A DNA stretch of 63,467 nt, counting the filler. It is 6 parts of 6 records of this genome, joined end to end, with 100 filler letters (N's around TTAATTAATTAA, not from the genome) between each part and the next. Parts side by side here need not be neighbours in the genome. Positions count along the whole stretch, not along the records: positions 34,756 to 51,035 come from SRR31156797_8803; 5 more parts are not named here. One strand, written 5' to 3'. Positions 4,610 to 48,093 of the stretch are shown piece after piece. The first letter of the stretch is position 1; every line of letters begins with the position of its first letter. Both the position numbers and the translations under genes were made by a program. Below the pieces are notes generated by a model that was not told where the DNA came from, made no database searches, and worked only from the letters and a program-made list of their open reading frames with translations.

Positions 4610-4645
4610 TTTGATTCCTCCTTTAAAAAATATGCTCTTACTATT

Positions 4646-15482: not shown

Positions 15483-15682
15483 AGCCCTTTTGGTGTTAAA
15501 CCATGGGGCAGATATCATTTTATGTCCATTTTGACATAAAGCATTAATCTTTATTTCAACCACTTACGTAAAACCCCTTCTAATGGGGCTGTGTGAAAGT
15601 CGGTAAAAGACCGATTCTTTTGAACTGTTCTCTCCAATCCCCCATAACAGGGATAACGGAATTAACTGGGAGAGGTACGCTT

Positions 15683-15913
15683 ATGCGTTTTTCACACAAC
15701 CATTCGTCGGCTGCAAACGCGACAAGTCCAATGCCCTTCGGCGGCCTTGGATTTGCCACGGACAGTGTCCATGCGGCGGCGCAGGGAATGATCCTGACAC
15801 CTCTCTGTCATTACGACAGATCAGGAACCAACCTGCCCGCCCCGGACCAAATCACGCAGCCAAGCGGCTATGAGTTACTCGTGACTTTAGGTTGCGAGAT
15901 TCGCGGGCGATGA
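15683..15913 (+). CDS. Small hypothetical protein (76 aa) directly upstream of fdhA
   Basis: GGAGAGG RBS before ATG; ends 25 nt before the fdhA start. Confidence 0.5.
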   Translation: MRFSHNHSSAANATSPMPFGGLGFATDSVHAAAQGMILTPLCHYDRSGTNLPAPDQITQPSGYELLVTLGCEIRGR

Positions 15914-15938
15914 CCCGCACTCAACTTTAGGAGGTCGA

Positions 15939-16544
15939 ATGCATACTAACCGAAGGAACTTCCTCAAGCTCTCCGCTGTCGCGGCCACGGCCACGGCTTT
16001 TGGCGGACTCGGGCTTGGCTGTACAGCGAAAAAGGCACCCATTGCCGATCGCGCCGAAGCCATGAAGCCCAAGTGGAGCAAACAGACAACGACTATCTGC
16101 TGCTACTGTGCAGTGGGTTGCGGTCTCGTCGTCAACACATCCCTCAAGGACAAGCGGGCCATCAACGTCGAAGGTGACCCGGATCATCCCATCAATGAAG
16201 GTTCTCTGTGTGCCAAGGGCGCATCCATCTGGCAGTTGGCTGAAAATGACCGCCGCCCGGATTCCGTCCTGTACAGAGCTCCCTATTCCAAAGAATTCAC
16301 CAAAGTCTCCTTGAGCTGGGCACTGGAAAAAATCGCCCACAACGTCAAGAAAAGCCGTGACGAAACTTTCACCTACAAGAATGCGAAAGGCCAAGTGGTC
16401 AATCGCTGCGACGGTATCGCTTCAGTCGGTTCCGCCGCTCTCGACAACGAGGAGTGCTGGGCTTACCAGACGATGCTCCGCAGCCTTGGTCTGGTGTATG
16501 TGGAACACCAGGCTCGTATTTGACACAGCGCAACTGTTGCGGCT
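15939..16544 (+). CDS. fdhA: Periplasmic Mo/W formate dehydrogenase alpha subunit, selenocysteine-containing (3' truncated)
   Basis: Tat signal NRRNFLK; CCYCAVGC and LCAKG 4Fe-4S motif; in-frame TGA at 16521-16523 in HQARI-U-HSATVAA, the Sec ligand position. Confidence 0.95.
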
Positions 16545-16644
16545 NNNNNNNNNNNNNNNNNNNNNNNNNNNNNNNNNNNNNNNNNNNNTTAATTAATTAA
16601 NNNNNNNNNNNNNNNNNNNNNNNNNNNNNNNNNNNNNNNNNNNN
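16545..16644. other. Artificial contig spacer
   Basis: 100-nt N run with TTAATTAATTAA. Confidence 0.98.
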
Positions 16645-17184
16645 TTTGGTAAACCCCAGGTCAATGACATTGCCCTCCCTGTAGGCGCTCATTCCGTATG
16701 CCTGCATCATCCAGACCCCTAATTTTGAAGACAATAGCCTGAGGCCAAAAGTCAGTTTTACATTCAAAAAATTAGGCAGGGGAAACATGGCCAGAGAAAG
16801 GCAGATAGGAAACCAGACCGTTTTCAGCCGCTCCATGCCCCCATAAATCCAACACAATCCCACGGCAACCATCCAAAAAGAGAGGTAAAGCATGAAATAC
16901 TCTCCGGCCAACTCCCCTATCCAAAAAAGGCTGATTCCCGGAATTAAAAGGAGGAACCCCTGCCATTCCGCTCTGCCCGGTTTTGAAAAAAAAACCGTCT
17001 TCCTCTCCCAGAGCAGGTATAAAACGATAAAGGGCATGAGCATGCCGTGGGAATAATCATCCCTTGTCCAGTCATGACGGACGAGGTATTCCAATGGTGA
17101 ATAATAAATCCCGAGGCAGATCATCCCCAGTACAAAAGGCAGGATACTCCGCCCATCCAAGTATCGTTTTATCTTAAAAATCAT
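16645..17184 (-). CDS. Exosortase (XrtD/EpsH-like), 3' truncated
   Basis: W-x-x-DDYSHG, MFPLP, REGNVIDLG motifs; ATGA overlap with the upstream stop. Confidence 0.85.
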
Positions 17185-17915
17185 CGCATACATTTCGCGA
17201 CGGCCACCTGGGCCGCAAACAAGGGTAATTTAATCTGGCGCCGGATCCGGGCGGGCTCTGCCATCAACCGATAGAACCATTCCAGACCGGATTTGCAAAA
17301 AAACTCCGGCGCCCTTGCCACCCGCCCCGACACCACGTCAAGGGAGCCGCCGATCCCCTGGCAGACCCGGACATGTTTCAGGCGACCGGAATTTCTGGCA
17401 ATCCAAAGTTCCTGCCTGGGAGAGCCCAGGGCAAGGAAGAGAATCTCAGCCTCTGATTCATTTATCCTGTCAATTAGTTCGCCTGCCCGGCTTTCCGCCA
17501 GATAACCGTTCTGCCGTCCTACGATCTTCAGTGAGGGGTGTCTGTTCAATAATTCTTCCGACGCAGCCCTGTTCACCTCTTCCCGGGCTCCGTACAGGAA
17601 GATCTTATATCCTTTATCAGCGGCCAGGCCACAGATATTCTGCATAAGTTCGCATCCGGGAACCCGGGAGACCGATGCGTTGTAAAGCCAGTTAGCGGCC
17701 CAGACCATTCCGATCCCGTCCGGAATCAGGAGATCGGCCCTTTTGAACATTTTGTACAGAAACCGGTCCTTGGGCACAGAATAATTTTTTTCAGGATTCG
17801 AGGCAAAAACCGTATGGACCCTGTTGCCGGTCTCAACAAACTCGACAACCCTGCCCAATGCCCGGTTCATATCACAGTCATCAATCCATATGTTCAATAT
17901 TGGAAACCGCTGCAT
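17181..17915 (-). CDS. WecB/TagA/CpsF-family glycosyltransferase
   Basis: NPEK, PDGIG, RVPGCEL, ALGSPRQE, GIGGSLD, RAP, LEWFYRL motifs. Confidence 0.93.
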   Translation of the reverse strand: MQRFPILNIWIDDCDMNRALGRVVEFVETGNRVHTVFASNPEKNYSVPKDRFLYKMFKRADLLIPDGIGMVWAANWLYNASVSRVPGCELMQNICGLAADKGYKIFLYGAREEVNRAASEELLNRHPSLKIVGRQNGYLAESRAGELIDRINESEAEILFLALGSPRQELWIARNSGRLKHVRVCQGIGGSLDVVSGRVARAPEFFCKSGLEWFYRLMAEPARIRRQIKLPLFAAQVAVAKCMR

Positions 17916-17919
17916 ATCA

Positions 17920-19686
17920 CTATTGATACTCCCTGTATATTTCAGCTGCTGCATTCAGTTGGGATTCATCCAAACCGATCAGGGTGATAAATATGACGCA
18001 ATCCGGATCTCCGGATTTAACCGCCTGAATGGTATTTGTCTTCTCTAAAAGGCCGTATCCCTTGGAATACCACCCCAGCAAGGGATTTATCCTGCCCCGG
18101 GCAATGGAAAAAAGGCCTTCGGGGTCATACATAAATAAGCGCTCTCCCCCATTATTCAAAAAAAACCAGTTTTCTTTTTTCTCAATCCTGACCCCTGGGT
18201 GGAGGTGAAAATTCACTTCAAACTCATGACGGCCCTGACCGGAAAAAGAATCCTTTATCACCCAGCAGGTTTTGTCATGAAAAACAAGTTCCCGTTCATG
18301 GGTTACCGGTTCTCTCAACCGGGTATATCCGTCATGGCAGCCGCGTAAAAGAATCCGGCCGGACCATTGCCGGGATTGAGTCAACCGGGATTTAAACGGC
18401 TTATCCCAGATAAATCCTGAAACCTGTTCAGCCTGATCTTTGCCGTCAATGCAGACCGTATTATGGGCACGGGTCCCTTTGAAATAGGATCGATACTCTC
18501 CCGCTCCATTATACCGGTAAGTGCCCGGATCAACGAAAAACGGCCGACCCTTTTTATAATAAACCACAGAAAGGGCATCTGCATGCCCGTGATTATAAAG
18601 GGGGCCCATTCCCAGAGGCCCGTGGTCAAAGGCCAGAAAAACCTCATTCCCCGTCCGGATTACCGAATAACCCGCATGGGGGAAGGTGACAGAATCAAGC
18701 CCCTGTAAACTGTCTGGCCATTCAGGACAGTTGGCCTCCCGATGTGGTACAAGCCCCGGGCCAAGGGCATATCCGCCATCATCATCACCAATGGACGGGA
18801 ACCTGTCTTTATCATAGGTAAAGGCGTTTAAAAATGCCTCACCCCGCCTTAGTCGTTCCTTCCACCCTTCACAATCATACCGGTGGTTGGCTTCCAGAAA
18901 GTCAAGGGTGAACCAATAGAGATCCAGAACAAATCTAAGATAGGCCAGGGATTGTTCGCCGGGTCCGCCGTCTGGCAGAATCTGATGAGAGAGCCCTTCT
19001 TCCAGCAGAATAACCCCTTTACTAAACCATTTATCCCCCTCCCGGGTCTCATTAAACAGGACGCCCGCAAAAATCAGCCCAACAGACTCGCATATGGTAT
19101 GATTCCCAAGGGAAGAATATAGAGCCATATTCCGAGAAACCCACCATGCATGACAAAAAACAGCAGAAAGAAGAGGTGCTGTTTTCTTTTTTTCAAGCTC
19201 CCTGTCCAGCCGCTTAAGGGTGAAAAAAAAAACCGGGATACGCAATGCGCACTCCATGGGAGAAAGATAGTGCACCCCGTGTAAAAATGGATTATCATCA
19301 ATCCAGGTCATCACCCTTGTTCTTATGCCGCCTTCCCCATCCCGGAACCCTTCCTGCAGACGGGCCGGCTCCCATACGGACCGGATATCGGGGTCCATAT
19401 CCTCAATTTTAATTTTTGAAAAAAACAGGGGACGCTTTTTTCTTTCAAATGATAGAAAATCCGATTCATGGGAAGCGGTTTCTTTCCCTGTTTCTGAATG
19501 GATAACCCTCGGCAGGATGATGGCGTCCAGAAAAGAAAGGTCGATTTCCGGCACCTGTACCAGGCCCTTGCCGGCAAAGGCCTTTTTTTCATAATACCAT
19601 GTCCGGGCCAATCGTTTTATACGGTAGGCAAATTCTTTGAAAGAAACCGTCCTTAAACGGTTTATATAATCTTTTGCATGATACAC
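17920..19686 (-). CDS. Heparinase II/III-family protein
   Basis: WEPARLQ, GNH, PDGG-EQS, HGHADALS, DPGTYRY, AHNT, HDGY motifs; GTG start. Confidence 0.88.
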   Translation of the reverse strand: MYHAKDYINRLRTVSFKEFAYRIKRLARTWYYEKKAFAGKGLVQVPEIDLSFLDAIILPRVIHSETGKETASHESDFLSFERKKRPLFFSKIKIEDMDPDIRSVWEPARLQEGFRDGEGGIRTRVMTWIDDNPFLHGVHYLSPMECALRIPVFFFTLKRLDRELEKKKTAPLLSAVFCHAWWVSRNMALYSSLGNHTICESVGLIFAGVLFNETREGDKWFSKGVILLEEGLSHQILPDGGPGEQSLAYLRFVLDLYWFTLDFLEANHRYDCEGWKERLRRGEAFLNAFTYDKDRFPSIGDDDGGYALGPGLVPHREANCPEWPDSLQGLDSVTFPHAGYSVIRTGNEVFLAFDHGPLGMGPLYNHGHADALSVVYYKKGRPFFVDPGTYRYNGAGEYRSYFKGTRAHNTVCIDGKDQAEQVSGFIWDKPFKSRLTQSRQWSGRILLRGCHDGYTRLREPVTHERELVFHDKTCWVIKDSFSGQGRHEFEVNFHLHPGVRIEKKENWFFLNNGGERLFMYDPEGLFSIARGRINPLLGWYSKGYGLLEKTNTIQAVKSGDPDCVIFITLIGLDESQLNAAAEIYREYQ

Positions 19687-19690
19687 AGAT

Positions 19691-21850
19691 TTAAATCAGG
19701 GGCAAGGCCAAGGTGACCGCCCTGTTGTCCCGTAAGGATTCCAAGATACCGAAACTTGCCAAGGATGTAGAGTACAATTGGTCATAGGGAATTAAATTTT
19801 CATCTCCCTTCAATATCCCGTTTAGAAAACTCCTCACCTCTTCTTTCTGCCCCTTGTTCTGGTTCATCAATTTATCTTTCTTTTTATTCCCGCCGGAATA
19901 AACCGTTAAATGCTTAAAATCATCCAGGACGGCCGACACCCCGCTGCCATGGACTTCAACCCTTTCCTTGGCAAGGCTTTTATCACCATTGGAAAAATAC
20001 TGCACAGATCCTATGGACCCGTTCTCATATTTTAAGGATACCGTTACAATATCATTTAATCCATGGGCATCTTCCATGGCATATCCATGTAAACTCACAG
20101 GCAGGGACCCGTTAATAAAGGTCAGAAAATCAATAAAGTGGCAGACCTCCCCTATAATACGCCCCCCCCCTGTTTCCATATCCTGAATCCATGAATCCGG
20201 AGGGATGGAACCGGCGTTAATCCGATAGGTCATGGCCACAGGGGTGCATTGAAAACAATTTTTCAACTTAACGGCCAGGGGAGAAAACCGCCGATTATAA
20301 CCGACCATCAGGTGAGGCCCTCCCCCGCCGGTCTTAACCAGAGCTGCAATCTCAATAAGTTCTTCCGGCGTCAGACAGAGCGGTTTTTCAACAAAAACAT
20401 GTTTTCCTTTTTCTATAGCCTCAATGACATATCCGGCATGGGAATCATGGGGGGTCGCGATGAATACGGTATTTATCTCCCCATTATCCAGGATATCCTC
20501 AAGTTTTTCCGTGCAAAAGCTGAATCTGAACCGTTCTGCAACAGAGCGGGAAGTGGTCCCGCGGCTGGTCATGACACCGTTCAGGGATATGGTATCCTTG
20601 TCCGGTATATTTGGCAGCAGATGGCTCTGGGCATAGGACCCTGCCCCGATAAATCCGATTCCGATTCTGCCGGGCTGCATAGGAGGACCGTCCTTTAAAA
20701 CAAATTTTTCGCGGTTGAATTTCTTTTGACGGTCATACTCGATTAAAATACCGATAAAGGCATCCGAGCCCTCCATAATCATATTATAGGCATCGGGGGC
20801 GTCCTCAAGCTTGAAAAGATGGGTGGTCAGATAAGAGAGGTCAATCCTCCCCTTGAGTATCAATTCCTGGAATGCCGCCATATTTCTCTGCTCTGTCCAC
20901 CTCACATAGGCGGCAGGGTAATCACAGCCTTTATCTTCGTACACCGGATCGTACCGGCCAGGGCCATATGAGCAGGACATTTTCAACTCAAGCTCTTTTT
21001 TATAATAGTGGGGTTCCCTGTCAAATCCTGTGGGGACATCACCCACAATGACCACCCGCCCTCTTTTCCGGGCAATGGCCCCGGCAAAATTAACGGGATC
21101 CAAAGAGGAGGACGCCGCTGTTATGATAACGGCATCACACCCCATCCCGCCTGTTGAATGTAGGATTTTATCCTGGATGCCTTTGGCATTCCTGGAAAGG
21201 GCCAAATCAATGCAGTGGCTGCTGGCGATTTCAACCATTGCCGGGTCAATATCAACCCCGACAACCTTAACCCCGGAAGCTTTGAGCAATAGTGCTGTCA
21301 ATTGTCCCAGAAGTCCCAGTCCGATGACGGCACATGTTTCACCAAGCCGCAAATCCGCCTGCCGGACCCCCTGCATGGCAATGGCCCCCAGGGTATTATA
21401 CGCCGCCTGCTTCATATCCGTATCCGGGCTTAATTTCACACAGAGGTTTACCGGGACACTGACAATTTCGGCATGTGAGGCTGTCAGGCCGCCGCAGGCA
21501 ACCTTGTCCCCCACCACATACCCACCAACATTTTCACCAATCTTTATCACCTCGCCGACACAGGAATACCCCAAAGGGGAATGGGCATCCAATTTTTTCA
21601 TGACAGCGCGGTAGGTCTGGACCGGCCCCTGGGTTTTTAATGTATCAATGACCTGTCTTACCTGCTGGGGACGTTCCTTGGCCTTGCCGACAAAGCCTTT
21701 TCTTGCTGTTCTTACGGTGCTGCCTTCAGTACCGGCGCTGACCAGTGAATAATAATTTTTCACCAGAAGGCAGCCTGGCTTTAAACCTGGCGCCGGCACA
21801 TCTAAAATAGTCATTTTACCGTTTTTTAATTTTTGGGTAAGCTGCTGCAC
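19691..21850 (-). CDS. Bi-domain oxidoreductase (Zn-ADH-like plus Gfo/Idh/MocA)
   Basis: SAGTE, GLGLLG, SYGPGRYD, GAGSYA, FVEKPL, GYNRRF, GEVCHFID motifs. Confidence 0.92.
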   Translation of the reverse strand: MQQLTQKLKNGKMTILDVPAPGLKPGCLLVKNYYSLVSAGTEGSTVRTARKGFVGKAKERPQQVRQVIDTLKTQGPVQTYRAVMKKLDAHSPLGYSCVGEVIKIGENVGGYVVGDKVACGGLTASHAEIVSVPVNLCVKLSPDTDMKQAAYNTLGAIAMQGVRQADLRLGETCAVIGLGLLGQLTALLLKASGVKVVGVDIDPAMVEIASSHCIDLALSRNAKGIQDKILHSTGGMGCDAVIITAASSSLDPVNFAGAIARKRGRVVIVGDVPTGFDREPHYYKKELELKMSCSYGPGRYDPVYEDKGCDYPAAYVRWTEQRNMAAFQELILKGRIDLSYLTTHLFKLEDAPDAYNMIMEGSDAFIGILIEYDRQKKFNREKFVLKDGPPMQPGRIGIGFIGAGSYAQSHLLPNIPDKDTISLNGVMTSRGTTSRSVAERFRFSFCTEKLEDILDNGEINTVFIATPHDSHAGYVIEAIEKGKHVFVEKPLCLTPEELIEIAALVKTGGGGPHLMVGYNRRFSPLAVKLKNCFQCTPVAMTYRINAGSIPPDSWIQDMETGGGRIIGEVCHFIDFLTFINGSLPVSLHGYAMEDAHGLNDIVTVSLKYENGSIGSVQYFSNGDKSLAKERVEVHGSGVSAVLDDFKHLTVYSGGNKKKDKLMNQNKGQKEEVRSFLNGILKGDENLIPYDQLYSTSLASFGILESLRDNRAVTLALPLI

Positions 21851-34755: not shown

Positions 34756-34891
34756 TAAACGGCTAATTAAGGTATTTAAAGTAGTTTACCATAGGTAAAA
34801 CCCCTCTTATGCCCTTAAAACAGGGAATTTATATATAATTCTATCCTACTTTAAGCTACTTAATAAGCGGTTATAAGACGGATGAGTAGAT

Positions 34892-34920
34892 AAAAAAAGC
34901 CAATTGGTATTTTATTGGCT
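34892..34920 (-). terminator. Probable intrinsic terminator
   Basis: Minus strand AGCCAAT/ATTGGCT stem followed by a U-tract. Confidence 0.55.
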
Positions 34921-35007
34921 CAGGTCTTAATTGCCCGAAGTCTAAAATATCAGTTGGCTTGATCACAACTAAAGGAATGTTGCTAGACGGTTTTTATCTG
35001 GGATTAA

Positions 35008-35688
35008 TTAGATATCAATATCCTCGTTTTCCTCAGTTGGCATCATGAATGATTGCAAAGTGGTGAATATTTCCATTTGTTCATCATGATTTTTTGCAAA
35101 AAGAAAATAGAGCATTTGTACCAAATAACCTTGTGCATCTGGTTGCATTCGCCTGATTGCATCAATTATTTGTTTTTCCTGAACATTGAATTGATCAGCA
35201 ACACCTTCCAAAGAATTCCCACCACTTGGAATAAGGTTGTTTGCTAGTGTTCCCAATACGGATTGAATAGCTGGCATTTGAGTGATTGCCGTTACTGTAT
35301 CTTTGGTTGTATTGGTACTTATTTTTGCAAGTTCTCTTGTGTGATCATCTTTAAGGTCACTAATTTTGTCTTTCAGCTTTTCAATGGTAAATTCATTTTT
35401 CAATTTTACTTCCTGTAAAGCTCTGATCTTATCACCGTAATCAGTTTTTAAATCAAGAATTACATTGAAATGCTCTCTTTCAACTCTTCTAAGTTCCTCC
35501 ATAGCATTTAAAGGAATCGGTTTCGGTTCGGGAACTTCTATTTCTTCATTTGGATAAATTTCTTCCAGTTCGCTTACATCTTTGTCGGTGCTTCTCAATT
35601 GATATGCTTTATTTCTACAAGTTGTAGAGCAATAACGGCTATCTGAGCGTTTCCCCGATATGGTTTCATTACATACTTCACATTTCAT
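35008..35688 (-). CDS. Hypothetical protein with N-terminal Cys4 zinc finger and coiled coil
   Basis: CEVC...YCSTTCRNKAY, then a heptad-rich helix. Confidence 0.8.
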   Translation of the reverse strand: MKCEVCNETISGKRSDSRYCSTTCRNKAYQLRSTDKDVSELEEIYPNEEIEVPEPKPIPLNAMEELRRVEREHFNVILDLKTDYGDKIRALQEVKLKNEFTIEKLKDKISDLKDDHTRELAKISTNTTKDTVTAITQMPAIQSVLGTLANNLIPSGGNSLEGVADQFNVQEKQIIDAIRRMQPDAQGYLVQMLYFLFAKNHDEQMEIFTTLQSFMMPTEENEDIDI

Positions 35689-35736
35689 TTTATCATTGTT
35701 TTTTAAGTTGTTGATTTATTTAATTGCTCTGATTTT

Positions 35737-35979
35737 TTAGGATGGTGATTCTTCAATTGATAGGGAATTTCTGGTTTGTTCATCCAATCCAATTTCCCAT
35801 GGTGCTCTCCACTCGATATTGTCATGAATGTATTTTATTTCATTTTCGAAAAGCAATGATCGGTTTTTGATGTGCTCCAAAAAAGCAGGATCCAATTTTT
35901 TCATTCTTCGAATAAGAGTTGATCTTGAAATATCTAATTCAATTGCAAGCTCTGTTCGGTTCATTGTTCTGTATTTCAT
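35737..35979 (-). CDS. Small HTH DNA-binding protein
   Basis: MNRTELAIELDISRSTLIRRMKK. Confidence 0.75.
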   Translation of the reverse strand: MKYRTMNRTELAIELDISRSTLIRRMKKLDPAFLEHIKNRSLLFENEIKYIHDNIEWRAPWEIGLDEQTRNSLSIEESPS

Positions 35980-36123
35980 TTCTTCAAATTTTATATTGTG
36001 TATGTATTCAGTTCGGTTTTTTCTCTGTTTGTATTCTTTTTAGCGTATACCCTTTAGGTTTTACAGGAATACACATCAAATAGGGTGAAAACAGTCCTGT
36101 TTTGTGTATTCATTGTGGTGAGC

Positions 36124-36753
36124 CTAATTTGAATACGCTTTTTGTGTTTCGATATGCTTTTTGACTCGCTGAACGGTAGTGACGGATTTTTTCACCAGCT
36201 TGGCAATATTCCTAATGGATTTCCCATCACCTAAAAGTTCAATAATATCGGCATGCTGTTTTTCGTATTGCTCTTTTGTCATTTTTCCTTTACCAGCATG
36301 AAGCTTGTAAACTCCTTTAGCTTTTGCAATCGCAATTCCTTCCGATTGTCTGTCTTTTATTCGGTCGTATTCCATTTTTGCAGCCAATACCATTAGAGCA
36401 GACATGAAATCAAACATTTGGTTGTAATGCCCATCGATGTAGCTTTTCATTCCGATTTTGTAAATGGTAACCGTTACCTGATTTTCTTTCATCAGTTCCA
36501 GAGTGTTTAAAACATCGGGAACACTTCTACCTAATCGGTCAAAGTCATAAACAACCAATTCAGAAATTTTATCTTTTCGAACTGCATCCATAATGATCTT
36601 ACCGCTTGGTCTCTCTGCAAATGGCATCATGCCTGAATACTTATCTACGACCAATTCACCTTTAATGTCTTTTAGTCCATCAACCTGTCTGTCTTCATTT
36701 TGTCCTGTGGTTGATACTCGGGCATATTTGTATACTTTCTTTTCGATACTCAT
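36124..36753 (-). CDS. Serine recombinase (resolvase/invertase) with C-terminal HTH
   Basis: YARVST-GQ-RQ, DRLGRS, RQSEGIAIAKAKG, SIRNIAKLVKKSVTTV. Confidence 0.95.
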   Translation of the reverse strand: MSIEKKVYKYARVSTTGQNEDRQVDGLKDIKGELVVDKYSGMMPFAERPSGKIIMDAVRKDKISELVVYDFDRLGRSVPDVLNTLELMKENQVTVTIYKIGMKSYIDGHYNQMFDFMSALMVLAAKMEYDRIKDRQSEGIAIAKAKGVYKLHAGKGKMTKEQYEKQHADIIELLGDGKSIRNIAKLVKKSVTTVQRVKKHIETQKAYSN

Positions 36754-36756
36754 GGG

Positions 36757-37080
36757 TTAGGATGCTTTTAGGTATGGGTATTCTTTTAAATGATCAGCTA
36801 CCATCTTATCAAACTGATTGTAGATTAAAACAGCAGTATCTTTATTGTCAATTTCTTTATCCAGGTAGTTTGAAAAGACAGTTCTGTATTGATCGGTTAT
36901 AGTATCACTTTCCTCTCCACCTTCATTAATATCAATTCCCATTAAATAGGTGATAGGATACCAACTGTTTAAGCCATGATCGGTACATGAAGTAATTTTT
37001 TCTATATGTTCAAATATTCGGGTGGTGACAACAATATCCTCTATCAAATCAATAATGACATTCTTTTTCTTTGTACTCAT
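36757..37080 (-). CDS. Hypothetical protein
   Basis: ORF tightly packed between rep and the recombinase (2-3 nt gaps). Confidence 0.7.
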   Translation of the reverse strand: MSTKKKNVIIDLIEDIVVTTRIFEHIEKITSCTDHGLNSWYPITYLMGIDINEGGEESDTITDQYRTVFSNYLDKEIDNKDTAVLIYNQFDKMVADHLKEYPYLKAS

Positions 37081-37082
37081 CT

Positions 37083-38501
37083 TTAAAATTGTTCTTGTTC
37101 AAGCCTTGTATCATCAGGGCATTGAGTTAATGTTTCAGTTTTGGTCTTTCTATCAAATTCATTGAGGAAGAAGCGGGCATCAGCTCCATGGTAATATTTT
37201 TTCTTTCCTCCTATGGTTGCAATGATCGATGTCTTTCGACTTGGAACTCCTTTTATCTTTTTTCTGTTGGGGTTGGTCGTTCTTATCAGGTTGAATTCAT
37301 TTCCTAAATCTTTAATCAGGTTGATAATCTCTTTTTGCTTTTTGCTTCGTCTGGCTTTTCTTTTCTGGGATATTTTCAGGTTATAGGCTTTATCCCTGCA
37401 TTTTCTTTGATCATTGCAGTACTTGGAACCGCTTTTCTGACCTGTTATCTCTTTTCCACAAGTCAAACAATATCTTTTCTCTTTTTTAACCTCTCCTTGA
37501 TCGGTTGATTCGCACCGTACAATACGTGGTGTATTCGTAACATTTTTTTGTGCGTTTATTTCTGGATTATTCCAGTTTTTTAGCTCTTCAAATTCGGTGT
37601 ATTCGTAACGTTTTTTATTGCGTGAAAACTCTGACAATTCCAATAAAATAAGGTCTTTCAGGATGTTTTTAATGTCACGTTTTGCGTACTTTTTTATTAG
37701 CTTTTCCAGTAAATCCTTATTTCGCTTGCGATCTGGACGGCTTCTCTCGTCTTTTATCCACCAATCGGGATTTCTCAAATCCTTGAATTTGCTTTTGTAT
37801 TTTTTCGGTAACCTTCTTGAAGATTTAATTTGATTCCATTCAAAGAAGATGGTTTCATCAATGAATTTCAGATATTTAGTAGCTATCAACTTACTAAGTT
37901 TCTCTTTATCCATTAGGTCAGCCAATGTTCTTATCTTGAAGTTTTCAACGGCTCTCATTCTGGTGAACTTGGTTTCAATCCTCAGTAAATCCACATGATG
38001 TATTTGAGATTGAGCCGATTTGTCGTAGAATTTGTACTTGGTGTTTGTGGTTTTAAACTTGTATCCGTTGCCTGATTCACCGTTGATATCCATATCAGAA
38101 CGCCTAACACCACGGCAATACAGGATGCTATCTAAAAAAGTCTTATTGTCAATCTTACAGGATGTTGTATCAAGGTTCAAACCGATTTCAAAGCCTCTTA
38201 GAATGGCTTTATCTGGTATAACTCCGAATTCAGACAAACGGTTTATAGCTTCCAGAAAGTTGTCAAAGGTGAATCGATTTGCATTGTGAGCTCCGTCATT
38301 AAAGAATTTATGAATAGAACCTTTGATTTTTGCTTTTCCTTTGGGTTCGATGATGAAGTCTAAACCCTTGTAACTGGCTTTTTTACTTCCCATTTTCTCA
38401 CCTGAATCTTCATCGACCCGAAAAGAGAATTTTAGATTTGGGTGTTCATTCCAAAGGCTAAAATCGAAGTCAGCAAGCTCTATGATAAATCCGTCAATCA
38501 A
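37083..38501 (-). CDS. Putative rolling-circle replication initiator (phage/plasmid gene II/X-like) with C-terminal zinc finger
   Basis: MID start, GSIHKF...HN, FEIGLN, FYDK, LLRIE motifs; CLTC...YC...C tail. Confidence 0.7.
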   Translation of the reverse strand: MIDGFIIELADFDFSLWNEHPNLKFSFRVDEDSGEKMGSKKASYKGLDFIIEPKGKAKIKGSIHKFFNDGAHNANRFTFDNFLEAINRLSEFGVIPDKAILRGFEIGLNLDTTSCKIDNKTFLDSILYCRGVRRSDMDINGESGNGYKFKTTNTKYKFYDKSAQSQIHHVDLLRIETKFTRMRAVENFKIRTLADLMDKEKLSKLIATKYLKFIDETIFFEWNQIKSSRRLPKKYKSKFKDLRNPDWWIKDERSRPDRKRNKDLLEKLIKKYAKRDIKNILKDLILLELSEFSRNKKRYEYTEFEELKNWNNPEINAQKNVTNTPRIVRCESTDQGEVKKEKRYCLTCGKEITGQKSGSKYCNDQRKCRDKAYNLKISQKRKARRSKKQKEIINLIKDLGNEFNLIRTTNPNRKKIKGVPSRKTSIIATIGGKKKYYHGADARFFLNEFDRKTKTETLTQCPDDTRLEQEQF

Positions 38502-38655
38502 GGGTGAGAAAAGAGTAAAAAAAAGGTGAGTTAATAATCCAAAAATGTGGTGTATGCGTTACACTTTTTGCCGCGTTTTCGTTACTCAAAAATTGAAAAA
38601 ATGAGTAAGATATGCCTGTAAAATACTGGTGTGTTCGTAACAGTTTTTATTGCGT
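37528..38655 (+). repeat. Four dispersed 28-bp direct repeats (37528, 37596, 38549, 38628)
   Basis: GGTGTATTCGTAACATTTTTTTGTGCGT, GGTGTATTCGTAACGTTTTTTATTGCGT, GGTGTATGCGTTACACTTTTTGCCGCGT, GGTGTGTTCGTAACAGTTTTTATTGCGT. Confidence 0.85.
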
Positions 38656-38706
38656 GGTATGTTCTGTGTTTCCTGTTTTTATTGGCTTTGATGCCAATTA
38701 CAATAA

Positions 38707-38880
38707 TCAAGTTTTGTACTGTACTTCTTTTGATTTAGGAGGAACACAAAAGAACTGTAAGCCTATACACATTAAAAAAAATATTATCTGGTGATAGGCT
38801 CCAAGAATAATTCCTATAAAAGCTAAAAAAGCTAGAATTCTAAATAGTATTTTGAATGCTTTATTGAATCGGTTTTCCAT
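38707..38880 (-). CDS. 57-aa small membrane protein (below ORF-track cutoff)
   Basis: MENRFNKAFKILFRILAFLAFIGIILGAYHQIIFFLMCIGLQFFCVPPKSKEVQYKT; ATG 2 nt after the upstream stop. Confidence 0.6.
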   Translation of the reverse strand: MENRFNKAFKILFRILAFLAFIGIILGAYHQIIFFLMCIGLQFFCVPPKSKEVQYKT

Positions 38881-38882
38881 GC

Positions 38883-39179
38883 TTAGGCTATTTTTCTTCT
38901 AAGTTGTTTTTTAAGCTGAACAAAGTCGATTTTCAGGACATGAGACAGACGAAAGAAATATTTTTTACCTGTTCGTGGTTCACATTCAATTAATCCATCA
39001 TTAACGTAATTAAGAACAGTTCTTTCGCTCACATTATGAATCTCTGCAACTACATTTGTACCCACTATTACATTGTAGAACTTATTGTAGATTTTACTTT
39101 CAATTTCAGTTTCTCGAATCTCATTCATTGCTTGAATAAGATCATCTTTATTCATGTTATAAGTAATCATTGTTTCCAT
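38883..39179 (-). CDS. Excisionase-like HTH protein
   Basis: TNVVAEIHNVSERTVLNYVNDGLI...YFFRLS winged-HTH pattern in the early operon. Confidence 0.75.
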   Translation of the reverse strand: METMITYNMNKDDLIQAMNEIRETEIESKIYNKFYNVIVGTNVVAEIHNVSERTVLNYVNDGLIECEPRTGKKYFFRLSHVLKIDFVQLKKQLRRKIA

Positions 39180-39203
39180 TGGGTGCTATTTTTGAATTTC
39201 AGA

Positions 39204-39413
39204 CTATTTTATTCTTGTGATCGAAATTTTGTAGCCATCTTTTGAAATGGACGTTGTGAATTCATAACCTTTCTTTTTTAATTCAGAACAGGTATTTCTA
39301 ATTCGTTGGATAATATTTACATTATCAATGTCTAGTGACATAACTTCTCCTTTGTCTAATTGCAGTAAGGTTGCATTCCAAACGATTTTACTTATAGGTT
39401 TTTTGTTATTCAT
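39204..39413 (-). CDS. Small basic protein at the Cro position
   Basis: First gene divergent from the CI-like repressor; 69 aa, basic. Confidence 0.65.
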   Translation of the reverse strand: MNNKKPISKIVWNATLLQLDKGEVMSLDIDNVNIIQRIRNTCSELKKKGYEFTTSISKDGYKISITRIK

Positions 39414-39447
39414 GTTATTTTGTCTAATTTGGTTTCGTATTGAGACA

Positions 39448-39503
39448 CAAATATAGAGAAATACTCTATTTAAGCAATGGTAAAATAGAGAAAAACTCTA
39501 TTT
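39448..39503. promoter_or_regulatory. Two 17-bp operators overlapping a Bacteroidetes -7 promoter box
   Basis: ATAGAG-N5-CTCTAT at 39453-39469 and 39485-39501; minus-strand TATATTTG (TAnnTTTG) at 39448-39455. Confidence 0.8.
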
Positions 39504-39510
39504 GAAATAG

Positions 39511-40203
39511 ATGAAAACATATAACATATTTATTATGAGCGTTAAGGATCGATTAAAAAAATTCATCAAAGATAGAGGGATGTCTGTGGCATCTTTCGAA
39601 AAATCTATAAATGCTTCTAATGGATATGTGAATAGTATTTCGAAAAGTATCGGTGTTGATAAGATGGAATCGATAATAGAGAAATACTCTATTTTAGATA
39701 TTGAATGGTTATTGACAGGTAAAGGGAGTATGTTGAAGTTAGATTCAAAACAGAATGTTGAGGTTGTAGGGGAAGGACTAATTGAGGATGCCGTACAGCA
39801 AAAAAAAGGTATAATAAGGTATTACGATGTTGATGCTTCGGCTTCACCTATTGAAATGTTTAGTTCTGGTAGTGATGTTGCATATAAAGACTTAATTGTT
39901 CCTGGCTTTGAGGATTGTGAAATTGCCCTAAATATATGGGGTGATAGTATGGAACCTAAGCTATGTAAAGGGGAGATGATTATTTGTAAGTTGTGGCAAG
40001 AGTCTTTTATAGAGTATGGGTTTGTATATCTTATAGAAACTAAAACAGGTCACAGGATGATAAAATATTTACAAGCTGGTCAATCACCAGATACAATTAA
40101 TTGTGTTTCAGAAAATAAATTTTATCAACCTTTTGAAGTGAAAAGAAATGACATACTTAAACTTTACGTTGTTAAAGGGCATTTGGAAAGAAGTATGTTG
40201 TAG
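39511..40203 (+). CDS. CI/LexA-like repressor (HTH plus S24 peptidase)
   Basis: SVKDRLKKFI...FEKSINASNGYV, EWLLTGKGSM, GDSMEP, MIK catalytic motifs; true start may be ATG 39535. Confidence 0.92.
   Translation: MKTYNIFIMSVKDRLKKFIKDRGMSVASFEKSINASNGYVNSISKSIGVDKMESIIEKYSILDIEWLLTGKGSMLKLDSKQNVEVVGEGLIEDAVQQKKGIIRYYDVDASASPIEMFSSGSDVAYKDLIVPGFEDCEIALNIWGDSMEPKLCKGEMIICKLWQESFIEYGFVYLIETKTGHRMIKYLQAGQSPDTINCVSENKFYQPFEVKRNDILKLYVVKGHLERSML
39676..39692. promoter_or_regulatory. Third operator copy inside the repressor gene
   Basis: ATAGAGAAATACTCTAT, identical to 39453-39469. Confidence 0.7.
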
Positions 40204-40220
40204 AGAAAACAAGTGTAGAT

Positions 40221-40484
40221 ATGAGTAAAGAACCAATCCCATCAACTAATTGGGAAATTGAATTTGAAAGAATCGTAAATAATCCAATATATTTTATTGA
40301 AGCTTATTGGAATAAATTGAATAATACTAATCCTGTTGAGCTAAGTAGAGAGGAAAAACAGAAATTTTTTGATAAGCACAAAGGGATTCCCTTGTTACGG
40401 ATGGATAATTTTATTGAGTTTCGGGAAGCGGAACAAAAGAGAAGAGAAAGCGGAATTGAGGATTGGGAGGTTTTGGTGAAATAA
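40221..40484 (+). CDS. Hypothetical protein (87 aa)
   Basis: ORF 17 nt downstream of the repressor, same strand. Confidence 0.65.
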   Translation: MSKEPIPSTNWEIEFERIVNNPIYFIEAYWNKLNNTNPVELSREEKQKFFDKHKGIPLLRMDNFIEFREAEQKRRESGIEDWEVLVK

Positions 40485-40495
40485 AATGTTGGTTT

Positions 40496-40774
40496 CTAAT
40501 CTTTTGAGGATTCTTTTATTAAAAAATGAAAAATATGTGAATGAGCTTCTTTTAAGCTACTAAGAAGCTCATATATAAATTGTTCTTCTTTTATTTTACC
40601 TCCTTCTAATTTGAATTTGTCGAATAAAACTGATAGAATATTTTTATTGAATTTTTCAATCTCATTTAGTTTGTAATCTTTAAAATGATCACTTAGTAAT
40701 GATCTATATTGTTGGATCAATTCAAAGGTGATTTCCGATTTATCTGGGTCGTAATCTGGATATTTTTTTTGCAT
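40496..40774 (-). CDS. Hypothetical protein (92 aa)
   Basis: ATG 3 nt after the integrase stop. Confidence 0.6.
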   Translation of the reverse strand: MQKKYPDYDPDKSEITFELIQQYRSLLSDHFKDYKLNEIEKFNKNILSVLFDKFKLEGGKIKEEQFIYELLSSLKEAHSHIFHFLIKESSKD

Positions 40775-40777
40775 GTT

Positions 40778-42061
40778 TTATTTCTTAAAAAATGGATGAT
40801 CAGCTAAACTTTTTGCATTTTCTTCTTGTGATATTTTAATATACTTCATGAATGCCTTTTCTGTTTTATGACCAGTAATTTTCATGATTCTAATAGAGGG
40901 GATTCCAGCATTAAACATGTTTGTTGCACCTGATCTTCTAGCTGTGTGGGTGGTGATTAATTCAAATTTTTGTTTTACTGTTTCAACTAATTTTCCTCCC
41001 TCTGTTCGTGAAGATGAAATAAGGTTGTCGATTCCTGCCATTTGACAAATTTCTTTGATGTGTTTATTTATTTTTTGATCTGAAATTGTTTTTGTCAGGT
41101 CAAATTCAGTTTCTAAAATCTCTTTAATTATCCAGTGAATGGGAATTATGACATCATCATTTTTTCTAATAGTAGCTCCTTTTGCAGGTTTTATTCTAAT
41201 AAAATTATCATCGAGGTTAATTTCTCCTAATCTATTAAAATCAGAAACTCGTAATGCAGTATAAGCACCTATTAAGAATCTATTTCTAACATGATTAAGA
41301 GCTTCAATTTTTCTTGTTAGGTTTTGTGTTCTGATATCCTTATAATCTTCAAGGTTCCTGATGAGTTCTTCTGTGAATTCTAAGTTGTATATTTTTAAGA
41401 GTTCATTTTCTGTAAGGTAAACGGAATCTGCTGTTTCGCTGGTGGTTCTAAATTTTTTATTTCTGTGTTCAATTGAATTGTGTAATCCTTCTTCTTTTGA
41501 TTCTTCCATGAATAATTTGATATTTTTAATCATGGTTCCAAAATAGTTTTTAGACTTACCTTCTTTCTCAATGTATTTTTTGAAATTTTTATAAAAAGAC
41601 ATGTTTATATCTTCAAAGTGAAGTTTCGTTCTGGTTTCTTTTTCGAAGGATATTAATAAATTTTTAGTTGATCCGTAGCTCAATTTTGTTCTGTCAGCTC
41701 TTCCCGATCTAGGTATGAAGTTTTCCAGATAATCCACTAATAGATTAGATGGTTTAACCCCTTTATTTTGTTTTTTTTCTATGGCTTTTAGAAATTCCTC
41801 TTTAGTTGGAACTTTCATTGTAATAGCAAAATCATTACAAACTGCATCTAAAGTATTCTTCCAAATACTAAGTCGAAGATTGATTTCAGCAGCATCTTTA
41901 TAAGCTCTTACCTGTTTAACTCGTTTTTTATCATCGAGCCAATAATCAACAATCACACGCTCACCTGTGGCAATTTTAAAACGTTCTCCTTTGAATCGTA
42001 CAATGGCATCAACCGAAGTTTGTTCCTTTTTTTTATCTTTAAGAAAGAAATTAACACTCAT
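40778..42061 (-). CDS. Tyrosine integrase (Bacteroidetes type)
   Basis: TALRVSD, HTARRS, TGH...FMKY catalytic motifs; N-terminal arm-binding and SAM-like region. Confidence 0.95.
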   Translation of the reverse strand: MSVNFFLKDKKKEQTSVDAIVRFKGERFKIATGERVIVDYWLDDKKRVKQVRAYKDAAEINLRLSIWKNTLDAVCNDFAITMKVPTKEEFLKAIEKKQNKGVKPSNLLVDYLENFIPRSGRADRTKLSYGSTKNLLISFEKETRTKLHFEDINMSFYKNFKKYIEKEGKSKNYFGTMIKNIKLFMEESKEEGLHNSIEHRNKKFRTTSETADSVYLTENELLKIYNLEFTEELIRNLEDYKDIRTQNLTRKIEALNHVRNRFLIGAYTALRVSDFNRLGEINLDDNFIRIKPAKGATIRKNDDVIIPIHWIIKEILETEFDLTKTISDQKINKHIKEICQMAGIDNLISSSRTEGGKLVETVKQKFELITTHTARRSGATNMFNAGIPSIRIMKITGHKTEKAFMKYIKISQEENAKSLADHPFFKK

Positions 42062-42097
42062 GAAGTATAGTATATGTTACAAAGTAAAGATATAAAA

Positions 42098-42131
42098 AGG
42101 GAACGATGGGGAACGTTTTGGGGAACGTTTT
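42098..42131 (+). repeat. Tandem repeats, candidate integrase arm-type sites
   Basis: GGGGAACGTTTT twice (42108-42131), preceded by degenerate AGGGAACGAT, between int and the att core. Confidence 0.65.
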
Positions 42132-42228
42132 ATTTTCTTTAGGTGTATTTTTTCATGAAACTCATTTTCAATACCCTATAAAACCTACTTTTTTTGCTGG
42201 TGTTTTGAAATTTAGATAAAAAACTAAT

Positions 42229-42245
42229 AGTCCCGCCCCGGGTAC
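42229..42245 (+). mobile_element. att core: displaced 3' end of a tRNA (probably tRNA-Leu)
   Basis: AGTCCCGCCCCGGGTAC reads as T-arm 3' side plus acceptor strand, with no tRNA 5' part upstream. Confidence 0.75.
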
Positions 42246-42253
42246 TCAGGATG

Positions 42254-42285
42254 AAAGCCGTTTCAGAAATGAAACGGCTTTTTTT
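42254..42285 (+). terminator. Intrinsic terminator of the original tRNA gene
   Basis: AAAGCCGTTTCA-GAAA-TGAAACGGCTTT followed by a T-tract. Confidence 0.88.
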
Positions 42286-42361
42286 ATATACATATACTTC
42301 ATATTTTTTTAAGGAATTGAATTGGGATTTTTCGTAATTTCGAATTATAAAATTGATTCCA

Positions 42362-43786
42362 ATGAACAAACACATTTTACTTCTAGTTTTCTTAATTTTT
42401 TCTCTGGTAATTCATGCACAAAAAGTAGAAATCCTCTATTTTACTGATGCGCATCGAATTTTTCCTGTTGATGATGTAGAAGGAGGTCGGGGAGGAGTAG
42501 CTCGCCTAAAAACAATAGCAGATCAAAGCAAAACAGCAAATCCGAATACATTAGTAATACATGGTGGAGATTTGTGTGGTGGTGTCCTTTTTGGGGGAAT
42601 GTATAAAGGAATGCCGATGATTGAAGCATTTAATGAAATTCCGGTTGATATCTGTAATTTTGGTCAGCATGAGTTCGATTTTGGTGTGGATCATACGCTT
42701 AAAATGCTTAGCAAATCGAAATCTCAATGGTTAAGCTCGAATCTTAAAAATAGAGATGGTGGTACTTTTGCTAGCCTGCCAAAATTTCTAATTAAGAAAT
42801 TTGGCGACATGCATATTGGTTTTATCGGATTAACCGATGCAATGAATTCAACAATGCAAAACAAGAGAGTGATTCAGGAAGATTTGTTGGTTGCTATATC
42901 AGGTGTGATTGAAGAATTAAATTCAGTTGATGTTTTGGTTGTAATCAGTCAAACTGATTTGAAGACCAATCGTGAAATTTTAAAACAGTTTCCTGAGATT
43001 GATTTAATTCTTACCGAAGAGCAATACGAGTACGAGAGCAATGTTTTTTACAAAGGGAATACTCCAATCGTTTCTCCTGCCGGAAATATGAGCTCTTTGG
43101 CTAAAATAACGATCCAAAACAATAAAAAAGTGCAGGTAGATATGATTCCTTTGGATTCAACAATTCAATCGGAGAAATATCTACGCGATATGGAAGTATT
43201 CTACAAGAAGGATATGGAGTTAAAATTATCTAAGAAATTGTGCATGCTTGAAGTTCCTTTGGACTTTAGAAGTGGTATAAAAGGGGAAAGTTTGGCAGGA
43301 AATTTAATTAGCGATGCTTATCGTGAATATCATGATTCAAATGTAGGCTTGATAAATGGAGGAGGAATAAGAGCTGATATTCCAGATGGAGAATTTACTT
43401 TAAAATCGGCGCGATCATTATTGCCATTTGGAAATAAAATCTGTCAGATTTTAATGAAAGGAAGTGAGCTGAAGAAGCTACTTAAGCAGTTTGCAGGTGA
43501 TACTAGAGGACAACTTTTACATGTGTCGGGTATTCGCTACAATTACAATCAAAAATTGAATTCTATAAATATTGAATGGAAAGGAAAAAAATTGCAGGAT
43601 GATGATTTACTGACAGTTTCTTTAAACAACTATTTTCTTAAAAAATTGACTGTTGAATTTGAAGTTTTGATTGATGAAAATGATCCGCTAGCGCTTGAAG
43701 ATTTTGAAGTTTTGCGTAAATATTGTGCTAGTAGAAAAATGCTTCATCCTAAATTAGAAGGAAGATTTACGATAATTAGGAAATGA
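42362..43786 (+). CDS. Secreted bifunctional metallophosphatase/5'-nucleotidase
   Basis: Signal peptide; TDAH, GGVARL, GGD, GQHEFDFG, NGGGIRA, LPFGN motifs. Confidence 0.9.
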   Translation: MNKHILLLVFLIFSLVIHAQKVEILYFTDAHRIFPVDDVEGGRGGVARLKTIADQSKTANPNTLVIHGGDLCGGVLFGGMYKGMPMIEAFNEIPVDICNFGQHEFDFGVDHTLKMLSKSKSQWLSSNLKNRDGGTFASLPKFLIKKFGDMHIGFIGLTDAMNSTMQNKRVIQEDLLVAISGVIEELNSVDVLVVISQTDLKTNREILKQFPEIDLILTEEQYEYESNVFYKGNTPIVSPAGNMSSLAKITIQNNKKVQVDMIPLDSTIQSEKYLRDMEVFYKKDMELKLSKKLCMLEVPLDFRSGIKGESLAGNLISDAYREYHDSNVGLINGGGIRADIPDGEFTLKSARSLLPFGNKICQILMKGSELKKLLKQFAGDTRGQLLHVSGIRYNYNQKLNSINIEWKGKKLQDDDLLTVSLNNYFLKKLTVEFEVLIDENDPLALEDFEVLRKYCASRKMLHPKLEGRFTIIRK

Positions 43787-47052: not shown

Positions 47053-48093
47053 TTATCTTACGCTAATATATGGTTCGTTATCATCTTTTCTTTCCATTAA
47101 TTTACCAATTGGATTCAAGTTGAATCCTTCTGATTTTGCCAGTTCTACAAAGTCTGAAATGTTATCATCGTTTACAGCTACCAATAGTCCGCCACTCGTT
47201 TGAGGATCGCAAAGCAGAGCTTTCTGATCTTCGGTAATTTCTCCGACTAAATGACCATAAGAAGCCCAATTACGTCTTGTTCCTCCAGGTGTACTTCCTT
47301 TCTGAATTAATTCTTCAACACCATCGATTTTTGGAACAGCATTGTAATCGATTATTGCATTTACATTACTTCCTTCGCAAATTTCACTTAGGTGACCCAA
47401 AAGTCCGAAACCAGTAACATCGGTCATCGATTTGATGTATTCCTGCTCTCCGAAAACCACACCAACTTTATTTAAACTACACATTAAATCAACAGCAATT
47501 TGATTGTTTTCGTGGGCAATTAATTTCTTTTTTTCGGCAGTTGTAAGAACGCCAATCCCCAGCGGTTTAGTTAAGAAAAGAGTGCAGTTCGGACTTGCTG
47601 TATTGTTTTTCTTTACACGATCGGTTGCAACAATCCCATTTACCGATAATCCAAATACTGGATCACCAATATCGATTGAATGACCACCTGCCAATTGAAT
47701 GTCTGCATTGGCACAAACATCTCTTGCACCTTCAATTACTTTTTGAGCAATATCAGTTGATAATTTATCCAAAGGCCAGGCTAAAATAGCCAATGCCATA
47801 ATCGGTTTTCCACCCATTGCATAAATATCACTAATGGCATTTGTGGCTGCAATTCGACCAAAATCATACGGATCATCAACAATAGGAGTAAAGAAATCGG
47901 TAGTGCTAATTAAAGCCTGTCCGTTACCTAAGTCGAATACCGCGGCATCGTCTTTTGTGTCGTTTCCAACCAATAGGTTCGGATTCGGGATTCTTGGCGT
48001 ACTGCTTTTTAGTATACATTCTAAATCTTTTGGTGAGATTTTACAGCCACATCCGGCTCCCGGACTAAATTGAGTCAGTTTCTTAGTTTCCAT
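47053..48093 (-). CDS. selD: Selenide, water dikinase (Cys form)
   Basis: [37 protein letters not shown]. Confidence 0.96.

Follow-up and report, generated by a model that had tools for sequence, protein, structure and literature searches.

A repressor-controlled integrative element with a gene II/Rep_trans-like initiator at tRNA-Leu(UAA) of a marine sediment Marinifilaceae bacterium, perhaps a phage satellite

Positions 34756–42285 of the DNA stretch analysed here (the window, 63,467 nt, positions 1–63467) are the integrase-side part of an integrated element in a member of the Marinifilaceae (Bacteroidota), a marine sediment bacterium. In our judgment, the balance is even on whether this element is an integrative, repressor-controlled, self-replicating island resembling the phage-inducible chromosomal islands (PICIs), perhaps a phage satellite. 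The window consists of six contigs joined by five N44-TTAATTAATTAA-N44 linkers and is not continuous genome; the G+C contents of the contigs are, in order, about 0.31, 0.49, 0.49, 0.34, 0.48, and 0.37, a spread (0.31–0.49) implying that neighboring contigs may derive from different organisms of one bin or culture. The genes that an initial annotation had read from this sequence are all present where it had placed them and in the order described. It had also called the left end missing: the far end of this copy indeed lies beyond the contig (34756–51035), whereas the break itself is an artificial N-linker joint. The contig stops after one unit of a 128-bp tandem repeat, and the assembly breaks at 34756 because the contig end falls in the repeat array.

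The insertion site is the 3' end of a tRNA-Leu(UAA) gene, as had been proposed from the sequence. Genome comparison identified the attachment (att) core at 42229–42245 (+) as the displaced last 17 nt of this tRNA, and the same 17 nt form the 3' end of tRNA-Leu(TAA) in all five Marinifilaceae genomes searched. An empty site was found in locus L038, where an intact copy of the tRNA precedes the terminator and the 5'-nucleotidase gene that are also seen in the window (90.7% identity over 1516 bp). The host terminator of the tRNA-Leu gene, from which the host flank starts, was located by a terminator scan at 42253–42282 (+) and also follows the intact tRNA in L038 and L037. Contigs from other sequencing runs diverge exactly before 42229, into tRNA sequence, and an independent metagenome contig from another study spans 39135–43500 in the integrated state. 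ARAGORN finds no tRNA in the window, so the intact tRNA copy is missing from it. Three direct GGGGAACG repeats, read in the sequence between the integrase gene and the att core (42099–42127), are candidate arm-type integrase sites, judged by the analogous GCGGCAAC repeats that L013 and L015, the complete relatives, have at each end.

The same tRNA also occurs in other contexts. Over 42229–42287 in the probable source run, short unitigs with a depth of ~900 carry an intact tRNA-Leu end with the same terminator and then continue into different sequence, and the summed depth over the terminator is ~2275; these unitigs suggest a second strain or a second locus. A 63-nt unitig with intact tRNA-Leu (depth 900), considered as the empty site of this genome, continues into other sequence and most likely belongs to another strain or locus. 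Two further regions, an 8.6-kb stretch after tRNA-Leu in genome G004 and the region after tRNA-Leu in genome G001, were set aside as uninformative, having only a GGGGAAYG-like motif in common with the window and no element genes.

The element encodes a replication initiator. Rep (472 aa; 37083–38501, −) comprises a G2P/Rep_trans-fold domain at aa 1–290, a disordered linker, a Zn ribbon (C345, C348, C362, C368), and a basic C-terminal part. A word-indexed search retrieved 62 relatives, none with a precomputed Pfam domain; every named one belongs to Labilibaculum, Marinifilum, Ancylomarina, or Carboxylicivirga, and only one is annotated as anything other than hypothetical. Sequence searches of phage and plasmid collections with Rep returned no match, and neither did Pfam, even at E ≤ 1, with the window Rep and 20 close relatives. 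A profile of the N-terminal 290 residues collected 2507 cluster representatives (50% identity) at E ≤ 0.001, 1997 of them at E ≤ 1e-10, including one named remote relative from Riemerella. Pfam at 1e-3 named none of 37 remote relatives; at E ≤ 1, among 84 remote relatives, it gave two weak PF02486 matches and one weak PF05144 match, all below the cut-off. Among 51 family members, no PHROG family was matched by more than one.

Three kinds of comparison place this protein. The AlphaFold2 (AF2) model of Rep has a predicted local distance difference test score (pLDDT) of 79.5 overall and >85 over aa 1–290; its best Foldseek matches are the initiators 4cwe and 4cij (E 1.7e-5), which VIA-align superposes with Z scores of 11.0 (233 aligned, rmsd 4.7) and 10.9 (218 residues), the next-best fold being the TATA-binding protein (TBP, Z 6.3). 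Predicted structures of Inoviridae G2P are among the best matches in BFVD. In the ESM Atlas, the nearest clusters are from Bacteroidota and have PF05144 in 20–79% of their members; PF05144 itself scores over the cut-off in 6 of 401 genomes of the same class (Bacteroidia). Alignment with hhalign of the 51-member Rep family (A3) against five PF05144-positive Bacteroidia proteins (A4) gave a probability of 97.4% (E 1e-11, 194 columns), with the motifs GSxHK, ExGxN, YDK, and LRxE in register. The alignment of the family with M13 gene II was not significant (0.8%), and this comparison covered the C-terminal part only, as gene II spans the start of the record. Eleven columns are invariant in the 51 Rep sequences, including H64, E105, E176, and Y159 of the YDK motif, the last being the putative nucleophilic tyrosine. 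Since fold, language-model neighbors, and profile-profile alignment agree, Rep is supported as an initiator of the G2P (PF05144)/Rep_trans (PF02486) superfamily; the gene II/X-like identity proposed initially thereby gains ground, though no library model reaches Rep.

The likely origin lies at and within the rep gene. A 28-nt bipartite motif, consisting of ACGCA, an A-rich spacer, and then ACGAATACACC, has four iteron-like copies there, all on the rep strand (−): two upstream, at 38628–38655 (−154 from the rep start) and 38549–38576 (−75), and two in the gene, at 37596–37623 (+878) and 37528–37555 (+946; ACGCA-N-ACGAATACACC). A loose pattern matches the window six times against 0.89 expected, and four of the six matches cluster at rep. 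Across related loci, 47 of 48 matches fall at about −155, −75, +875, and +946, all on the rep strand; iterons are present in 21 of 23 loci, and the strict pattern is absent from L018 and L021. The in-gene copies are 68 nt apart, lie inside the linker where the pLDDT is <50, and stand in different reading frames, which implies selection on DNA rather than on protein. Origins located inside initiator genes are known from pT181 and lambda, and in pT181 the cognate repeats also lie inside the initiator's own gene.

The element also encodes an integrase and a phage-like switch. The tyrosine integrase (427 aa; 40778–42061, −; PF00589 1.7e-9, PF13102, phrog_1 1.7e-18) shares 35% identity with its counterparts in L013 and L015, two elements with defined ends. 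A CI-like repressor with a C-terminal S24 peptidase domain (39511–40203, +; PF00717 Peptidase_S24 5.9e-12, phrog_4 1e-21) carries, by sequence reading, Ser146 in a GDSM motif and Lys185 39 residues further on; it had no match among PDB sequences. Divergent from it is a 69-aa gene (39204–39413, −) without a family match and with one homologue, in L012. The small divergent gene proposed as Cro-like is thus in place, whereas the label is given by position alone. The 97-bp space between the divergent genes holds two 17-bp palindromic operator-like sites, ATAGAGAAAnACTCTAT (39453–39501), and a pattern search found a third copy within the repressor gene (39676–39692), i.e., three matches in the window against 0.01 expected by chance. 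The phage-like switch is supported by the divergent S24 repressor and the three palindromes; its SOS inducibility is putative, suggested by the S24 domain. Next to the 69-aa gene, an Xis-like HTH_17 protein of 98 aa (38883–39179, −) matches PF12728 at 1.4e-5 and 25.7 bits, just below the 27-bit cut-off, and its L013 homologue scores above it (35.6 bits). The same protein has a weak match to phrog_57 (small terminase; E 0.004), the only trace of a packaging function.

Relatives with both ends show how such an element is built. L013 (11.1 kb) and L015 (14.8 kb) are complete, with exact att repeats and intact open reading frames (ORFs); in both, a 15-nt tRNA-Cys fragment lies beside int, and an intact tRNA-Cys stands at the far end. 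The architecture recurs in at least four genera, with one to three Rep copies per genome in the five genomes counted. The initial annotation had seen no virion or conjugation genes, and this stands for the visible 7.5 kb, where Pfam and PHROGs found neither capsid, terminase, or portal genes nor genes for a Zot-type ATPase, a relaxase, or a pore, and for the two complete relatives: none of these genes was found in L013 by Pfam (its three tail ORFs were also compared with PHROGs and again with Pfam) or in L015 by Pfam only.

What fills the elements varies from copy to copy. The stretch between the Zn-ribbon gene with its repeats and the tRNA differs between copies. L013 has three tail ORFs without an assigned function, as well as a HigB-like toxin and an HTH-M78 peptidase (HTH, helix-turn-helix) between int and the repressor. 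L015 (13716–19726) encodes a DndE/HerA-like ATPase, an SMC-like ATPase, and an RNA_pol_A_CTD/HA protein; L011 (10786–12004) encodes two ThsB-type TIR proteins, and L009 (10726–13686) encodes an HSDR_N protein. By domain content, the cargo of these last three islands looks like anti-phage defence, and since the candidate defence genes differ between relatives, the islands may be a place to seek new defence systems. In L042, whose Zn-ribbon protein is 97% identical to that of the window, the 8 kb after the repeat array contain small genes, two genes on the minus strand, an integrase with 80% identity to its L013 counterpart, and a tRNA-Cys att fragment; one of its ORFs has a HELGH motif, read by eye. 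The six large L042 ORFs, compared with all loci of this analysis, including L017, L022, and L023, by tblastn, matched integrases only.

Sequence comparison shows that the modules of these elements are mosaic. The closest genomic relative, L001, has 95% DNA identity to the window only over 34756–38715, from the repeat to just upstream of rep, and contigs of another sample diverge from the window at 38712 and 38880. In L001, no integrase was found within 21 kb and no att repeat. As an observation on its own, L001 carries beside the array (14717–20498) genes for a C39-peptidase ABC exporter, a beta-barrel protein of the outer membrane, and a radical SAM enzyme; they form a peptide-export or RiPP-like cluster (RiPP, ribosomally synthesized and post-translationally modified peptide) that may be cargo or host sequence.

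The replication module is also found in a tailed prophage. L022 and L023 (the latter the same as L017, from Marinifilum flexuosum) are IMG/VR contigs of 32 and 35.6 kb. L017/L022 encode Int, a Rep of 62% identity accompanied by the same iterons, a serine recombinase of the invertase type, terS (phrog_83, 2.7e-43), and terL (phrog_9, 4.6e-165), together with a DNA methyltransferase and a second tyrosine recombinase; all genes run in one direction, and the Zn-ribbon gene is absent from both L017 and L022. The possibility that L017 is a satellite plus a separate prophage was considered; the internal tRNA-Arg att repeat sought for it was not found at the 11-mer level. The presence of the Rep-iteron-recombinase module in a terS/terL prophage means that the module is not specific to small elements.

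Several traits of PICIs come together in the element and its relatives: an integrase, att sites, a divergent switch, an initiator beside repeats, a size of 10–15 kb, and no structural or lysis genes, with size and ends taken from L013 and L015. If the element is a PICI-like island, loss of the repressor, by RecA-stimulated self-cleavage or another signal, would turn on xis and rep, and Int and Xis would excise a circle. Rep would then bind the iterons, nick with Tyr159, and drive rolling-circle copying, and the serine recombinase would resolve multimers. The circle would exit the cell in borrowed particles of a tailed helper phage carrying the same Rep-iteron-recombinase module. The intact tRNA would most likely lie in the unseen far part, together with variable cargo, in many cases genes for anti-phage defence. 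The S24 domain points to self-cleavage of the repressor rather than to a helper-phage anti-repressor.

A number of results weigh against this PICI-like reading. The element lies at the left end of its contig, and the far end of this copy is outside the window. No packaging, capsid-remodelling, or small-terminase gene was recognised in any small element with Pfam or PHROGs, and the link to a helper phage consists of the shared Rep-iteron-recombinase module only; genomes G001 and G002 have one small element each and, with the query used, no L017-type terL. Rep alone matched no Pfam, NCBIfam, or PHROG model, and the Rep family profiles (A1, A3) gave nothing significant against PDB sequences. At the iterons, neither a nick site nor a significant hairpin was found, and the single strand folds no better than shuffled sequences (z −0.3, −0.9). 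The element unitig is as deep as its flank in the probable source run (1364 against 1415), and no joints were seen; the contigs of this run, in which rare forms are invisible, give no sign of excision or extra copies. Lastly, a transfer function could be concealed in any of several proteins without an assigned role: those of 226, 107, 87, and 92 aa, or the products of the tail ORFs of L013 and L042.

It is fairly unlikely that the element derives from a tailed prophage like L017/L022 by decay or truncation, with its late genes lost or, in this copy, beyond the contig break. Rep, iterons, and recombinase are common to both; the far end of this copy is missing, and L001, with a 95% identical rep-to-repeat module, has no integrase within 21 kb. 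Against this, the Zn-ribbon gene and the array occur only in loci without a terminase, in a terminase search of the loci other than L042. The complete L013 and L015 measure only 11.1 and 14.8 kb, their att repeats being exact and their ORFs intact, and in L042 the array is followed by cargo, integrase, and att fragment within 8 kb, its large ORFs matching integrases only. The recurrence of the architecture in at least four genera, with one to three Rep copies in each of five genomes, also argues against this reading. The initial annotation had allowed that an extended sequence might turn out to be a conventional tailed prophage; the relatives carrying the Zn-ribbon gene do not show this, whereas this copy, whose far end is outside the window, may still prove to be one.

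An integrative mobilizable element (IME), in which the Rep_trans-fold protein would be a relaxase comparable to NicK of ICEBs1 or to those of the MOB_T class, is quite improbable. ICEBs1 begins on its left with int – repressor <> xis – nickase, an order similar to that here, the fold of Rep is Rep_trans, the M78 (ImmA/IrrE-like) peptidase of L013 comes with an HTH domain, and L042 has the HELGH ORF. The Rep_trans family is known for relaxases belonging to integrative and conjugative elements (ICEs) as well as IMEs in Firmicutes, according to the available parts of three sources (PMC6499999, PMC7563843, PMC5704250). However, the mating-pore marker of Bacteroidetes, TraM (PF12508; positive in a Bacteroides control), occurs in only two of the ten carrier genomes, and TraJ in two of the five searched, which are the two TraM genomes; these TraM genes lie on contigs other than that of Rep, and, the carrier genomes being drafts, absence of TraM/TraJ is not proven by these counts. 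No coupling-protein or pore match was found in the element or its complete relatives. Since the same Rep serves a tailed prophage, a replication role is simpler than a relaxase role.

The prophage of a small single-stranded DNA (ssDNA) or tailless virus, inovirus-like or other, with structural genes too small or too new to recognise, has the least support of all and is very improbable: the G2P-like initiator, the 57-aa hydrophobic peptide beside rep, and several small unassigned ORFs would suit it, but no Zot/pI-type ATPase, secretin, or capsid match was found in the 7.5 kb seen here or anywhere in L013, complete at 11.1 kb (scans that very small coat proteins could escape), the 226-aa protein is modelled, at low confidence, as a Zn ribbon with helices and not as a jelly roll, the cargo varies between copies as island cargo does and virion genes do not, and the Rep family also serves a tailed dsDNA prophage. 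This option, which the initial annotation had offered beside that of a satellite, is not supported.

The PICI-like reading can be set beside known satellites. PICIs, including the Staphylococcus aureus pathogenicity islands (SaPIs), and the virion-encapsidated integrative mobile elements (VEIMEs) share with the present elements a size of 10–15 kb, flanking att sites, the lack of structural and lysis genes, and a gene order of int – repressor <> small regulator – xis – initiator beside repeats – variable cargo. The SaPI initiator is a primase-helicase, whereas the initiator here is G2P/Rep_trans-like, and no terS, capsid-remodelling, or interference gene was recognised here. In the present element, packaging and a helper phage are putative. 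VEIMEs are marine integrative elements without capsid genes that are carried as concatemers in particles, which fits rolling-circle copying, and some are reported as integrated in Flavobacteria (PMC9618062).

Two other groups of systems resemble single parts of the element. RepD, RepDE, and RepC of pT181-type plasmids (PF02486; 4cwe, 4cij) share the fold of Rep (Z 11), and filamentous-phage gene II (PF05144) is linked to it by the motifs aligned with PF05144-positive proteins. In contrast to both, Rep adds a C-terminal Zn ribbon and a basic tail and is found in an integrated element and a tailed prophage, not in a small plasmid or a filamentous phage. ICEBs1 (int, immA, immR <> xis ... nicK) and the MOB_T IMEs of Firmicutes share a tyrosine integrase that acts at a tRNA gene, a switch of divergent repressor and xis genes, and a nickase of the Rep_trans family, and NicK also drives rolling-circle copying of excised ICEBs1; the element here differs in having no recognised conjugation genes and in its Bacteroidota hosts, most of which, as tested, lack TraM.

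We tentatively raise the possibility, which we hold at clearly less than even chance, that these are the first described phage satellites of Bacteroidota, copying by rolling circle under repressor control, having their initiator/origin specificity in common with tailed helpers, and ferrying anti-phage defence cargo. A literature search on Bacteroidota phage satellites and Phage_CRI in Bacteroidetes gave, among the matches listed, no description of such an element in the portions of text available, and the one candidate preprint, in its available part, concerns unrelated elements. Phage satellites are little described in marine sediment Bacteroidota. If the proposal is true, Rep would represent a large unannotated Bacteroidota branch of the gene II/Rep_trans superfamily (2507 clusters), its origin repeats would be written into the linker of the initiator's own gene, and the 128-bp array with the Zn-ribbon/coiled-coil protein would be a satellite-specific packaging or interference part. 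A large Rep family left blank by Pfam, NCBIfam, and PHROGs is placed by this evidence as a branch of the gene II/Rep_trans initiators, with a putative catalytic tyrosine and a putative 28-nt binding site, both testable. One replication module occurs both in a tailed temperate phage and in att-bounded islands of the same bacterial family, the pattern expected of helper and satellite.

Four further genes lie downstream of rep. A 107-aa protein (36757–37080, −) has no family match and has homologues in L001, L009, L011, and L018. It is followed by a small serine recombinase of the resolvase/invertase type (209 aa; 36124–36753, −; PF00239 2.4e-23, HTH_7, phrog_125 "DNA invertase" 2.4e-37), which tblastn placed downstream of Rep in 17 of 21 loci and PHROG in L017. 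Homologues of the next gene, an 80-aa HTH protein (35737–35979, −; HTH_8 2.1e-5), adjoin the recombinase in most loci. The 226-aa Zn-ribbon protein (35008–35688, −) matches no Pfam or NCBIfam model; its N-terminal ribbon, CxxC...YC...C-R-x-K-A-Y, is patterned like the one close to the end of Rep and is followed by a long helix and a small helical C-terminal part, in an AF2 model that is poor (pLDDT 64, predicted template modelling score 0.21). Its homologues occur in eight of 21 genome loci and in eight metagenome loci. The terminator noted initially after this gene can be read in the sequence as a hairpin and T-run at 34892–34921 (−), the same as in L001, whereas a consensus terminator scan does not report it.

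The tandem array begins in the window with its first unit of ~128 bp (34756–34883, −), which is cut by the contig end and aligns to every unit of L042. L001 has 3.7 copies (13619–14089) and L042 has 6.7 (837–1686), and the L018 arrays (13885–14345) have units of 104–116 bp. We take the unit length to be close to that of a resolvase res site, and the small serine recombinase gene is 1.2 kb away. The repeat has no Rfam match; considered as an RNA gene, it was set aside with a weak consensus fold (−5.97 kcal/mol, two pairs with double changes).

The element has three more small genes. Beside the repressor gene, an 87-aa protein (40221–40484, +) and, next to int, a 92-aa protein (40496–40774, −) have no family match. 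The 57-aa hydrophobic peptide (38707–38880, −), recognised from ORF and sequence, has weak homologues in L002, L004, L012, and L019.

Other arrangements were observed around Rep in related loci. In L006 (Marinifilum flexuosum), a second, tandem element (516–4656) immediately precedes the main locus on its upstream side; it encodes a separate integrase and a distant paralogue of Rep (29% identity, 416 aa). Where the Zn-ribbon gene is absent (L002 14296–21377, L010 12968–21142, L004, L006, and L007), the loci continue instead into a convergent cluster on the minus strand, with an ArdC-like zincin (MPTase-PolyVal), uncharacterised proteins of 850–1030 aa, a GH108 lysozyme that also has a PG-binding domain, and numerous small genes. 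This cluster may be another phage or element, and TraM was not found in the genomes of L002, L004, L006, L007, and L010.

Elsewhere in the window, the contig of the element includes a 346-aa ORF (47053–48093, −) with an N-terminal GAGCGCK motif, which we presume to resemble selenophosphate synthetase. The first low-GC contig carries a purine riboswitch aptamer (RF00167; 8782–8879, −; 63.8 bits), the sole Rfam match in the stretch.

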